From Candidatus Hermodarchaeota archaeon (GTDB taxonomy: Archaea; Asgardarchaeota; Heimdallarchaeia; Hodarchaeales; Hodarchaeaceae): 14,190 nt of DNA. Both the position numbers and the translations under genes were made by a program. This document shows positions 6,308 through 9,441 of this stretch, piece after piece. The notes beneath the pieces were generated by a model. It had not been told where the DNA came from. It was given only the letters and a program-made list of their open reading frames with translations, and ran no database searches. Location: assembly GCA_048886185.1 (NCBI GenBank), contig JBHLKY010000044.1:1-14190 (forward strand). Direction: 5' to 3'. Numbering within the stretch: position 1 is the stretch's first letter; each line of letters opens with the position of its first letter.

Positions 6308-7351
6308 TTAATTTGAAGCGTCAATTTGACGCGTGTCATCCATCAATGACCGACCTGTGATATGTACAAATACATCTTCTAAAGTAGTCTCTTGTTTGTC
6401 AATATTTCGGATGACTGCTCCTTTAACGTTTAGAGTTGAGATAATTTCAGGGAGGATCTGACGACTATCCTCACAAACAACGTTTAGATATGGTTTCTCA
6501 TTTGTAGAACCATTATTTGACCGTTTGACAAGCATCGTGGCTGATATAACACCTGGAAGAGAGATCACCGCGAGTCTTGCTTCTTCAGAGATGGTACCCT
6601 CAATACTAAGTATGTCAGATTGGTTCAATCTGTCTTTCAAGTCATGAGGGTCATCAAGAGCGATGATCTGACCGTGATCAATGATCGCAATCCTATGACA
6701 AAGCTCTTCCGCTTCGTACATTTGATGAGTACAATAGATGATGGTCTTATTCTCAGATTCATTGTGTTCTTTGACGATTTTTCTGAGACGTCTTGCTTCT
6801 TTGACATCAAGAGTATTAGTGGGCTCATCTAGCATTAAAATGGGAGCATCATTGATCAATGATCGAGCGAAAACCATCTTCATTTTTTGACCAGAGGAGT
6901 AAGTTTCGACTGTCCTATCAGCAATCTTCTCTAGCTCTAACAGATCAATGAGGTTTTGAATACGCTCTCGTCGCACTTTTTTGGGGACATGGTACAAAGC
7001 TCCGAAATATTCCAAGTTTTCACGACCAGTAAGTTTCCAATATAGTCCTCGTTCACCCATCAACATGGCTCCAATAGAGGCTTTGACCTGCTTATCCTGA
7101 TCTAGAGAAAATCCGTTAACTTTGGCTGTACCTGAAGTAGGCAGGAGGAGAGTGGTCAAAATTTTTATCAAAGTAGTCTTCCCTGCACCATTCGGGCCAA
7201 GAAGGCCAAAAATCTCCCCCTGATTGACATGAAAAGAAACGCCTTTTAATGCCTCCACTTCATTTTTTTGACTACGAAATAATCCTGTTCGCTTCTTAGA
7301 GAAATAGATTTTACTTAAATCCTGAACTTCGATCATTTTTTGGTGGGACAT
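6308..7351 (-). CDS. ABC exporter ATP-binding subunit (DrrA/NodI-like) with a C-terminal accessory domain
   Basis: Walker A GPNGAGKT, signature YSSGQ, Walker B ILMLDEPT, H-loop CTH; C-terminal TLEDVFVHITG. Confidence 0.96.
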   Translation of the reverse strand: MSHQKMIEVQDLSKIYFSKKRTGLFRSQKNEVEALKGVSFHVNQGEIFGLLGPNGAGKTTLIKILTTLLLPTSGTAKVNGFSLDQDKQVKASIGAMLMGERGLYWKLTGRENLEYFGALYHVPKKVRRERIQNLIDLLELEKIADRTVETYSSGQKMKMVFARSLINDAPILMLDEPTNTLDVKEARRLRKIVKEHNESENKTIIYCTHQMYEAEELCHRIAIIDHGQIIALDDPHDLKDRLNQSDILSIEGTISEEARLAVISLPGVISATMLVKRSNNGSTNEKPYLNVVCEDSRQILPEIISTLNVKGAVIRNIDKQETTLEDVFVHITGRSLMDDTRQIDASN

Positions 7352-7389
7352 GAGTAAGTAACCTTCAATTGAGTTTATGAAAATGAGAC

Positions 7390-7429
7390 TGTAATAAAAT
7401 TACATTAACTGTTTTGTATTAAAATTACA
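7390..7429. promoter_or_regulatory. Two palindromic operator-like sites upstream of the ABC operon
   Basis: TGTAAT-AAA-ATTACA (7390-7404, perfect 6-bp arms) and TGTATT-AAA-ATTACA (7415-7429, one mismatch), 25 nt apart and 39-78 nt upstream of the ATG at 7351. Confidence 0.6.
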
Positions 7430-7896
7430 GAAAGCATTTAAATAGCCTTTCGTTTCGGCAATCCTCCTCTGGCGATATAAAATCTCACTTAGCTGAAACT
7501 AATTTTAGATTCGCTTTTCTTTATCGGTTAAAACTCTTCTTTTTAGAATCGAACTCAATAATCTAAGAGATCACCATATTTAGGGAAATATTATTCTCTA
7601 AATTGGTAACCATTTTAGATTTTGCCACAGATTTTAGTATAATAGAAAATGATACCTAGAAGGAATTTATTGAGCCTTAAAAGTTGGATAGTGTTAAGTT
7701 CTTTCTTCAAAAAGCTTTTTCTCAACACAGAAAATGGAGAGAAATACTATTGATCTTCCTTTTCCTATCTCGTTGCCAAATTTCTTATAATACGGGCTGT
7801 AACACTGGATATAGCAATTATTTAAGAAATAAGATTGATTTCATTTAGAAATATGTCTGTATTAGCTTAAATAGCTACTGATGTCATTTATTCTCA

Positions 7897-8009
7897 GGAC
7901 AGAAATGTGGAGATACTAGTCGGTCACATTCAGTCGCATCAGACCTGCTAGTCCGAATAGCCTCATGGCTTTCCTTGCGACTCTTTCTGTCATGTAACTC
8001 TTTTTCTTT
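7897..8009 (+). ncRNA. Candidate structured small RNA or cis-regulatory leader, family not recognised
   Basis: Nested helices: GACAGAAA/TTTCTGTC, AGTCGCA/TGCGACT, AATGTG/CACATT, AGCC/GGCT and GAC/GTC. TATA-like TTAAATAG at 7867-7874 and a T-rich tract at 7999-8009. The strand is not certain. Confidence 0.45.
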
Positions 8010-8020
8010 GGTGAGTCTTC

Positions 8021-8158
8021 ATGCCTTCCAATCCTAAAAACTCATCAAACAGTTCTGATAAACATAAATCTCCTAATTCCGACCATTTGCACCCTTTAGA
8101 ACGTAAATACGGGAAAGAACCGAAGATTAAAATGGAAAATTTATGGTATTGGCACTAA
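8021..8158 (+). CDS. 45-aa small protein of unknown function
   Basis: MPSNPKNSSNSSDKHKSPNSDHLHPLERKYGKEPKIKMENLWYWH*. Archaeal-type SD GGTGA at 8010-8014, 6 nt before the ATG. Confidence 0.5.
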   Translation: MPSNPKNSSNSSDKHKSPNSDHLHPLERKYGKEPKIKMENLWYWH

Positions 8159-8222
8159 TCCTGCAAATATGAATCCTTAATCTATCTTCTAGAAATTTAG
8201 AAGTGGAATAATTGACCATAAG

Positions 8223-8537
8223 ATGGTGAACATCTTTTCTTTAGGATGTCATTTTTTGGTACAACCAGAAGATAATTCATATATTTATTGTCTAATGTTG
8301 AAAATCTGGAATGAACCATTTCCTCCACAATATCAATATACAGAACCTGGTAGTCTTGAAGAGGTTGAGATCTAGCGATATTCTTCTGATTATAACCAAT
8401 TCACGAAATATAGCAATCTAAGTGGTGAGGCAGAGTATTGGTATAAATTCAATTTCACGAATAATCCTCCTTGTCATAATGGAAATGCCACGCCATGTTT
8501 TTGGGCACATTATTTATGTTGGAAATTACTTATTTAG
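8223..8537 (+). pseudogene. Possible gene remnant: 104-codon frame broken by one TAG
   Basis: ATG at 8223 to TAG at 8373-8375, then 53 more open codons in frame to TAG at 8535-8537. Tyr/Asn/Trp/Pro-rich and protein-like, but no family recognised. Confidence 0.3.
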
Positions 8538-8550
8538 CCATTTGATAATC

Positions 8551-9441
8551 TCACTCATCCCACTCATACTCATCCTCAAGGTCGTGAAATTCAATATCAA
8601 TAGTACTCACTGGAGCTCCTTTCTTCTTCGGATAGGGTATGAAAAAAATGTCTGACCGCTGTATCTTCCCACGGAGAGCGAAGAGCGCTATCGCGAATAA
8701 TCCCCAGAGGTACAGGATGAATGCGACTGTTCCGACCAAAATAGCTATGAAAAAATCTGTAGTACGCCAGAATGTGTCGAGAGTGAACACAATCAGTACG
8801 ATCACAGCATTGAAAATATAGATCGGACGGATATTCAAATTTAGGATGATTGTGTTAAGGATAAAGAGCCAATCATTTAGAGTGGGCATCATGACGCCAA
8901 AAATGCCCATAAAGAAGTAAAAGTGAATAGCTGCGCCCGCCACTGTTGTCAAAACCTGTGTGAGGGGGGTAACCAACGCCAAGGGGGAAATTACTAGATA
9001 CCCGATCAATAATACCCATCCAAACCGGTTGGGGGCCATAGCAACCTTTTGAGCATATCCAATACGGTTGAAGGAGGTGATTAACATTGAATTCTCATCA
9101 TTGCGACTAAGACCTGTGGCAAAGCTTGAACGAAGGATGTATTGGTCATGAATATCGTCATAATCGTCCTCTTCCTCATTTTTCTTCTGATCAAGGATCT
9201 GAACAAGTTCTTTGGCACTATAGACATGAAGATAGACATGAAGGAAACGAAAGGGAAACCAAAGGGCGTTGATGAGGGATTTGATGAATGGCAAGAAGTG
9301 CATGACTAACTGAAGTAGGAAGTACATAAACAGCTGCCGTACAAAAAACGCGAGTATGTCGCTCGGATCAAGGACTTCCTGGGAATACCACTGGAAAAAT
9401 CCAATTAATCCTAATGCAATGAGGTCTAATGGTGTGGTTAT
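8551..9441 (-). CDS. Polytopic membrane protein, M50/site-2-protease-like with a degenerate HExxH motif (HVYLH); probable start ATA at 9441 (ORF track uses ATG at 9327)
   Basis: The frame is open upstream of 9327 as far as 9483. GGAGG at 9453-9449 sits 7 nt before ATA at 9441. Motifs FPFRFLHVYLHVYSA, MAP and MMPTLND; acidic loop and acidic C-tail. Confidence 0.7.
   Translation of the reverse strand: MTTPLDLIALGLIGFFQWYSQEVLDPSDILAFFVRQLFMYFLLQLVMHFLPFIKSLINALWFPFRFLHVYLHVYSAKELVQILDQKKNEEEDDYDDIHDQYILRSSFATGLSRNDENSMLITSFNRIGYAQKVAMAPNRFGWVLLIGYLVISPLALVTPLTQVLTTVAGAAIHFYFFMGIFGVMMPTLNDWLFILNTIILNLNIRPIYIFNAVIVLIVFTLDTFWRTTDFFIAILVGTVAFILYLWGLFAIALFALRGKIQRSDIFFIPYPKKKGAPVSTIDIEFHDLEDEYEWDE
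9220..9243. repeat. Exact 12-nt tandem repeat encoding LHVY-LHVY
   Basis: ATAGACATGAAG x2 on the + strand. Confidence 0.9.

Follow-up and report, generated by a model that had tools for sequence, protein, structure and literature searches.

The window analysed here is a 14,190-nucleotide stretch of DNA, which is contig C44 of a 4.8-Mb, 75-contig genome from a Candidatus Hermodarchaeota archaeon of the order Hodarchaeales. The Hodarchaeales count among the archaea known to be most closely related to eukaryotes. An ABC ATPase gene and a 258-aa ORF, both on the − strand, flank a 1.2-kb gap (7352–8550) in which the longest ORF is at most 77 aa, and a Ras-family GTPase is also encoded in the window. 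The original prediction, made from the letters of the sequence, had pointed to a GC-richer island in AT-rich DNA inside this gap, and the G+C content is indeed 47% at 7900–7999 compared with 26–30% in the flanks. The segment 7898–7991 on the + strand is the core of a small structured non-coding RNA gene, the family of which is absent from Rfam. The features of the region are as follows.

6308–7351, − strand: ABC ATPase gene, one flank of the 1.2-kb gap
7866–7873, + strand: TATA-like box CTTAAATA, at a conserved position in 11 of 11 copies
7894–7897, + strand: predicted transcription start region, placed by its spacing from the TATA-like box
7898–7991, + strand: conserved RNA core of 94 nt, closed by helix P1; BLAST and covariance-model matches start and stop here
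8001–8009, + strand: U-tract (T5 C T3) separating the RNA from the ORF; a candidate signal for archaeal termination
8010–8158, + strand: SD-like GGUGA (8010–8014) and 45-aa ORF (8021–8158); G008 and G021b keep the ORF at 30 nt from the RNA
8247–8486, + strand: decayed copy of a Cys-rich ~106-aa gene (34–36% identity by tblastn; in-frame TAG at 8373–8375; cysteines of CPPRCPYY lost)
8551–9327, − strand: 258-aa ORF, the other flank of the gap

Rfam 15 gives no match in the window at gathering scores, and at E ≤ 10 there is nothing credible over the RNA element. A chance-level antisense match to HrrF that overlaps the 3′ half of the element scores 19 bits (E 1.5), where the gathering score is 77. 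At the 10 homologous loci described below, no match at E ≤ 10 overlaps any copy of the RNA. A clear hit to a known Rfam family, which would have removed the novelty of the element, was thus found neither in the window nor at these loci. ARAGORN detects no tRNA or tmRNA gene in the window, and neither a C box (RUGAUGA) nor a D box (CUGA) is conserved on either strand of the 11 copies. The earlier failure to match the element by eye to tRNA, SRP, C/D box RNA, common riboswitches or small ribozymes agrees with these results. By inspection, the ends of the RNA form a continuous helix of 8–10 bp that lacks the two 3-nt bulges expected of a circular RNA excised at a bulge-helix-bulge. Three further readings, namely a U6-like ACAGAGA/AGC pair of motifs, a GCUAGUCGGU resembling the D arm of tRNA, and a K-turn in the loop between P1 and P2, were dropped by eye because the bases are paired or not conserved or because the required G–A pairs are absent. 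A literature search found no paper describing this RNA and, for Asgard archaea in general, no account of non-coding RNAs that goes further than routine annotation with Rfam; one paper on cultured Hodarchaeales annotated non-coding RNAs with Rfam only.

Homologues and the conserved fold

Folding of the single sequence gives z-scores of −1.75 on the + strand and −2.22 on the − strand. The element thus folds better than its shuffles on both strands, but only modestly, and these scores alone would be a weak case for a structured RNA. The case rests on sharply bounded homologues and on covariation. A DNA search of 60 relatives gives matches in five genomes of the same genus, and the BLAST alignments span query positions 37/39 to 132, which correspond to 7896–7991 of the window, the ends of P1. 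A covariance model (R1) finds a second copy in the genome of the window itself (G000:C5:170751-170851, − strand, 72% identical), which BLAST had missed, and confirms two copies in G021. The metagenome contig WOR8_10000524 carries one copy, and two further MAG contigs, reached through a neighbouring protein, also carry copies. Together with the window, the 10 homologues make 11 copies of a discrete block of 88–95 nt with pairwise identities of 58–90%, all in one Hodarchaeales genus, and the similarity is confined between the ends of the closing helix P1. The RNA is present in 6 of the 22 representative genomes of this genus, and the covariance models draw a blank in 61 further genomes from the class and, beyond the genus, in about 145 genomes from the phylum. 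A 23-bit model match in G005 is a false positive, because it overlaps the 3′ end of a nitroreductase-like ORF. DNA-pattern matches in three Hapalosiphonaceae cyanobacteria and one Korobacteraceae MAG are attributed to chance because the covariance model does not match them; the cyanobacterial ones, a single match each to the 40-bit pattern in Nostochopsis, Fischerella and Pelatocladus (L037, L040, L041), most likely represent one shared locus.

The + strand is the RNA strand. The original prediction had left the orientation open since one helix pairs better on the − strand. In the 11-copy alignment there are 35 G–U cells, and 96.8% of the pair cells are paired on the + strand compared with 87.1% on the − strand. 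The RNAalifold energy is −20.05 kcal/mol on the + strand and −14.53 kcal/mol on the − strand. These two results and the position of the TATA-like octamer settle the orientation.

RNAalifold applied to the + strand of the homologue alignment yields a fold that differs from the nested drawing proposed earlier. From its ends inward, the RNA has P1, then an internal loop with unequal sides, then P2, which leads into a three-way junction with P3 and P4; the P3 loop adds a pseudoknot. Along the chain, the strands follow in the order P1, P2, P3, pseudoknot, P3′, P4, P4′, P2′, pseudoknot′ and P1′.

7898–7905/7984–7991, + strand: P1; 97.7% paired, two pairs with double changes
7909–7911/7972–7974, + strand: P2, GGA/UCC; 100% paired, compensatory A–U to G–C in two copies (G006, WOR8)
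7915–7920 and 7922–7925/7942–7945 and 7947–7952, + strand: P3, 10 bp, from the RNAalifold consensus; 93.6% paired, compensatory G–C to A–U in G021b and G000b
7932–7937/7977–7982, + strand: pseudoknot, AGUCGC/GCGACU; 98.5% paired, compensatory C–G to U–A in two copies (G006, WOR8) and two single G–U changes
7959–7970 (stem 7959–7962/7967–7970), + strand: P4 hairpin, AGCC UCAU GGCU; 97.7% paired, double changes in three of four pairs

Standard pairs occupy 96.8% of the 341 pair cells of the alignment. Compensatory double changes are seen in 8 of the 31 pairs, with at least one in each of the five helices, although 11 copies from one genus, some of them closely related (up to 90% identity), limit the statistical power for covariation. 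When the 3′ partners are slid by 1–3 columns as a control, only 34–47% of the cells are paired and 0–2 pairs show double changes. In P4, AGCC/GGCU is replaced by AGUC/GACU or by GGUU/AACC, and one column pair of P3 (30/53) is G–C in five copies, G–U in four and A–U in two. In several copies, P1 is extended outward by 1–2 pairs into the predicted start region (7894–7897). Homologues and compensatory changes, the lack of which would have spoken against the original prediction, are thus both present: the changes touch all five helices, and the homologues end where P1 ends.

Two helices of the earlier drawing, P1 and the hairpin that is now P4, are retained at the same positions, and both covary. 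The helix AGUCGC/GCGACU, previously placed at 7932–7938/7976–7982, is real, conserved and covarying at 7932–7937/7977–7982, but it is a pseudoknot rather than a nested helix. Its 5′ strand lies in the P3 loop, and its 3′ strand belongs to the 3′ side of the internal loop that separates P1 from P2. The helix becomes a pseudoknot once the two invariant CUAG motifs are paired with one another in P3. Contact between these motifs had been foreseen as one between two hairpin loops; the contact exists, but within the 10-bp P3. In contrast, the hairpins drawn at 7904–7909/7925–7930 and 7939–7944/7951–7956 are each only 63% paired across the copies, the same as shuffled columns, and are abandoned. The crossing helices could instead be alternative conformers. 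Taken with its boundaries, this pattern of pairing makes it very likely that 7898–7991 (+) is a genuine structured RNA gene.

Predicted transcription signals and neighbouring genes

In every one of the 11 copies, the TATA-like octamer starts 32–34 nt upstream of the first base of P1, in DNA that is otherwise not conserved. Six copies carry a perfect TTTAAATA, and in the window the octamer reads CTTAAATA. The promoter guess of the original prediction is therefore borne out by conservation in 11 of 11 copies, with the box shifted from 7867–7874 to its true coordinates, 7866–7873. Because archaeal promoters keep a usual spacing between the TATA box and the start site, the position of the box would place the transcription start 1–4 nt before P1. 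The T-tract that was noted after P1 is also present, with a T5 run at 8001–8005. Past P1, a run of T5–T6 comes at +10/+11 where the ORF follows (three copies), and a run of T4–T5 comes at +37 to +43 in most of the others. In G006 and WOR8, an 8-bp hairpin precedes the T run, so that a hairpin and U5 stand about 40 nt past P1 with no conserved ORF behind them. Transcription would end mostly at the U-tract, which is 8001–8009 here, giving an RNA of about 105–115 nt; in copies without the ORF, the RNA would be about 135–145 nt long.

Ten of the 11 copies have a purine-rich, SD-like box at +12 to +25 downstream of the RNA. The pairing of GACUC in the RNA with a GAGUC that overlaps the SD, put forward earlier as an alternative structure, is lost in the closest homologue, which reads GAGCC. 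RNAduplex of the RNA against its own 3′ flank gives no pairing that is consistent across copies, and no conserved anti-SD or anti-terminator pairing was found. In the crotonase-linked copies, the purine-rich box ends in AGGGAU (AGGGUG in L029) 20–25 nt past the RNA and is the sole conserved patch of the spacer (L004, 1612–1625; L042, 2723–2735; L043, 2772–2785; equivalent positions in L005 and L029). No conserved ORF follows it there, and the short ORFs present are not conserved.

Two kinds of genes are found downstream of the RNA. At the ORF-linked loci, which are the window (G000a), G008 and G021b, a conserved ORF of 43–45 aa, preceded by an SD-like GGUGA, begins 30 nt after P1. No A/T-rich promoter-like stretch separates the RNA from the ORF in the window, and the 45-aa ORF, which reads LHPLERKYGKEPKI...WYWH, is probably co-transcribed with the RNA. 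Its small-protein family occurs in 21 of the 22 genus genomes with 1–4 copies each, in frames of 43–133 aa, and has a strongly conserved C-terminus, LHPLExKYGxEPKI(E/D)PxxxWxWH. The 45-aa ORF matches nothing in Pfam, NCBIfam or the Atlas, and a search of 5.8 billion proteins returns only the protein itself. The covariance model detects no RNA beside eight other loci of the family that were examined, and, to judge from these loci, the family mostly occurs without the RNA. Many of its members are preceded by a GGAGAAAAGGTG-like box.

At the crotonase-linked loci (G000b, G017, G010, L042 and L043), a crotonase gene stands on one side of the RNA and the Cys-rich ~106-aa gene on the other. The latter is the next co-directional gene and starts 200–420 nt downstream of the RNA; a conserved TATA-like box of its own precedes its ATG by about 48 nt. 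A AAATTGGGTAATTAAAAATAAC-like box at this distance is seen in L042, L043 and L045 (~2945–2965, + strand), including a locus without the RNA, and is probably the promoter of the Cys-rich gene itself. The Cys-rich family, with eight conserved cysteines and the motif WNEPCPPRCPYY, is multi-copy, being present in 20 of the 22 genus genomes with up to 8 copies per genome. The protein belongs to no Pfam or NCBIfam family, the Atlas search gives only sub-0.9 matches, and its AlphaFold2 model is unusable (mean pLDDT 37). The first 17–18 codons of this gene are duplicated beside a run of N at G000:C5:170457-170510 (L029), which looks like an assembly gap artefact. A guess that the 258-aa ORF of the window (8551–9327) is a homologue of the convergent neighbour of the Cys-rich gene elsewhere proved wrong on comparison.

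The order crotonase gene, RNA and Cys-rich gene is kept across species whose Cys-rich proteins are only 60–70% identical, and an inversion separates the neighbourhoods of G000a and G008. The RNA lies upstream of the Cys-rich gene in 5 of the 11 loci and beside a decayed or inverted paralogue in two more, while orthologous Cys-rich loci in six other genomes are without the RNA. Because both gene families occur at loci without it, the RNA is, as far as gene order tells, tied to neither the 45-aa ORF nor the Cys-rich gene. In 7 of the 11 copies, no cistron lies directly behind the RNA.

Possible functions and relation to known RNAs

The original prediction inferred a new sRNA, a riboswitch-like leader or a ribozyme. 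The 11 copies, the covariation and the lack of an Rfam family support this set as a whole. With slightly better than even confidence, we favour a stand-alone small RNA that would act through its own fold and that in the window would also serve as the 5′ leader of the 45-aa ORF, a view drawn from comparison of the loci. It is favoured because 7 of the 11 copies have no cistron directly behind them. In G017, G010, G000b, L042 and L043, the distant downstream gene has its own TATA-like box; in G006 and WOR8, the RNA is followed by the hairpin and U5 without a conserved ORF; and the Cys-rich orthologues of six genomes and most members of the 45-aa ORF family do without the RNA. Because helices take up nearly all conserved bases and leave conserved single strands of only about 3 nt, the RNA would act as a compact fold that binds a protein or a small ligand, and not by antisense pairing. 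In the window and the two other ORF-linked copies, the promoter of the RNA would also have to drive the ORF 30 nt downstream, so that the RNA would double as its 5′ leader. Expression of the 45-aa ORF would then depend on read-through of the U5 tract acting as a leaky stop.

The SD-like box of 10 copies and the nearby ORF of three count against a purely stand-alone RNA and also fit a cis-acting 5′ leader. Such a leader, a riboswitch-like aptamer or a protein-binding element, would control read-through of the U-tract or access of ribosomes, here for the 45-aa ORF. At the ORF-linked loci, the 30 nt between P1 and the ORF hold T5–T6 and the SD-like box and leave no room for a separate promoter. 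The fold, in which P1 closes a three-way junction with a loop-to-internal-loop pseudoknot, has the topology of the THF-I aptamer (PMC6614920). However, most copies have no cistron directly downstream, the ORF family is found in nearly every genome of the genus and yet has no RNA at the eight other members examined, and no conserved anti-SD or anti-terminator pairing supports a switch. Moreover, it is the helices rather than the junctions that hold the conserved bases, an unusual pattern for a ligand pocket. We therefore regard the leader, the strongest alternative, as possible but not likely. A more specific proposal, that the RNA is a new Hodarchaeales ligand-sensing or RNP-scaffold class in which a THF-I-like loop-receptor aptamer gates termination at the U-tract and so controls the LHPLExKYGxEPKI...WxWH small proteins, is doubtful. 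If true, it would be among the very few riboswitch-type regulators native to Asgard archaea.

The remaining explanations are far less probable than a stand-alone RNA or a leader. A new class of self-cleaving ribozyme, or of self-processing RNA more generally, would agree with the compact pseudoknotted fold of about 95 nt and its highly conserved helix sequences, since such size and complexity are typical of small ribozymes. However, no Rfam ribozyme family matches any of the 11 copies at E ≤ 10, the helix order is, by our reading, unlike the HDV-like, hammerhead, twister and pistol topologies, neither repeats nor a mobile-element context are present, and the promoter puts the 5′ end at P1, so that there is no upstream part to cut off; self-processing is very unlikely. 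An RNA of, or left by, a mobile element (such as the omega-RNA scaffold of TnpB, or an RNA from a virus or plasmid) is highly improbable. The patchy spread over 6 of 22 genomes, the two diverged copies in each of G000 and G021 and the inverted neighbourhood of G000a relative to G008 would suit it, but there are only 1–2 copies per genome, the synteny with the crotonase and Cys-rich genes is kept across species, IMG/VR viral contigs contain no match to the RNA, and no terminal repeats were noticed. In addition, no ORF of TnpB size (none longer than 265 aa) lies within 1 kb of the nine copies with ORFs listed, which sets the RNA apart from TnpB/IscB omega-RNAs. Least probable of all is that the element is not an RNA but codes for protein, as a short exon or a peptide gene, or acts as DNA to which a protein binds. 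In favour of this, the CUAG motifs are palindromic, and the best frame, DRKSR...DRLASPHFC on the − strand, is open through the element in 6 of the 11 copies, but stops or frameshifts interrupt it in the other five and it contains no ORF of at least 30 aa from any start codon in the window. Across the homologues, neither strand keeps any frame open throughout: every frame is stopped in at least 5 of the 11 copies, and 1-nt indels distinguish G006, WOR8, L043 and G021b. Compensatory changes that preserve pairing and the strand asymmetry of G–U pairs are a signature of RNA rather than of DNA or protein.

A stand-alone small RNA has precedents among archaeal RNAs. Orphan promoter-driven structured small RNAs of Archaea form G+C-rich islands in A+T-rich genomes, as exemplified by the Hgc RNAs found in GC-content screens. 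The present family is new within this known kind. It shares with the Hgc-type RNAs the G+C island, its own TATA box, a U-rich 3′ flank, covarying helices and the lack of an assigned function, whereas its sequence and fold are different, with a pseudoknotted three-way junction found in part of one Hodarchaeales genus and with three copies fused to a small ORF as a leader. Non-coding RNAs with a protein partner may be encoded beside the partner gene, as in the ssrA-smpB pair. The RNA resembles this pattern in lying upstream of the Cys-rich gene, or beside a decayed or inverted paralogue of it, at seven of the 11 loci; unlike in that pair, the link is loose, since the Cys-rich orthologues of six genomes lack the RNA and the family is multi-copy.

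The closest likeness in architecture is to the aptamer of the THF-I riboswitch (RF01831), a bacterial class, whereas the host here is archaeal. Both are about 90–100 nt long and consist of P1, an internal loop, P2, a three-way junction and a pseudoknot of a terminal loop, a topology supported here by covariation. In the THF-I aptamer, a terminal hairpin loop forms Watson–Crick pairs with a receptor in the helix below the three-way junction, producing a loop-receptor pseudoknot (PMC6614920). In contrast to THF-I, no covariance-model match to RF01831 is obtained at E ≤ 10 for any of the 11 copies, no folate genes are nearby (the downstream gene is the 45-aa ORF or that of the Cys-rich protein, and the neighbours include an ABC-2 transporter and crotonase), most copies have no downstream cistron, and the conserved bases lie in helices. 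The resemblance is thus one of topology only, and may serve as a lead rather than as evidence of membership.

The narrow and patchy distribution, in part of one genus, limits the general importance of the RNA. If it is a sensor of a ligand or a protein, it would add a class of regulatory RNA to a lineage in which none has been characterised. Because the RNA is well delimited, with a covariation-supported, pseudoknotted fold and a recognisable promoter, it can be tested directly, and cultured Hodarchaeales strains with RNA-seq data exist (10.1101/2025.02.26.640444).

Two minor observations concern the surroundings of the small ORF and its paralogues. A 10-bp long-range stem, UUUGGUGAGU/ACUCAUCAAA, between 8007–8016 and 8040–8049 (+) would close around both the SD and the AUG start codon of the 45-aa ORF; its folding z-score is −2.96, and a GGUGA/UCAUC pairing is, by eye, also possible in the G008 copy. 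Regions about 100–150 nt upstream of the small-ORF paralogues in L053 and L054 have AGTAGCACTCNGGTAGTAACGT and other blocks in common, which may be a different conserved leader or promoter region.
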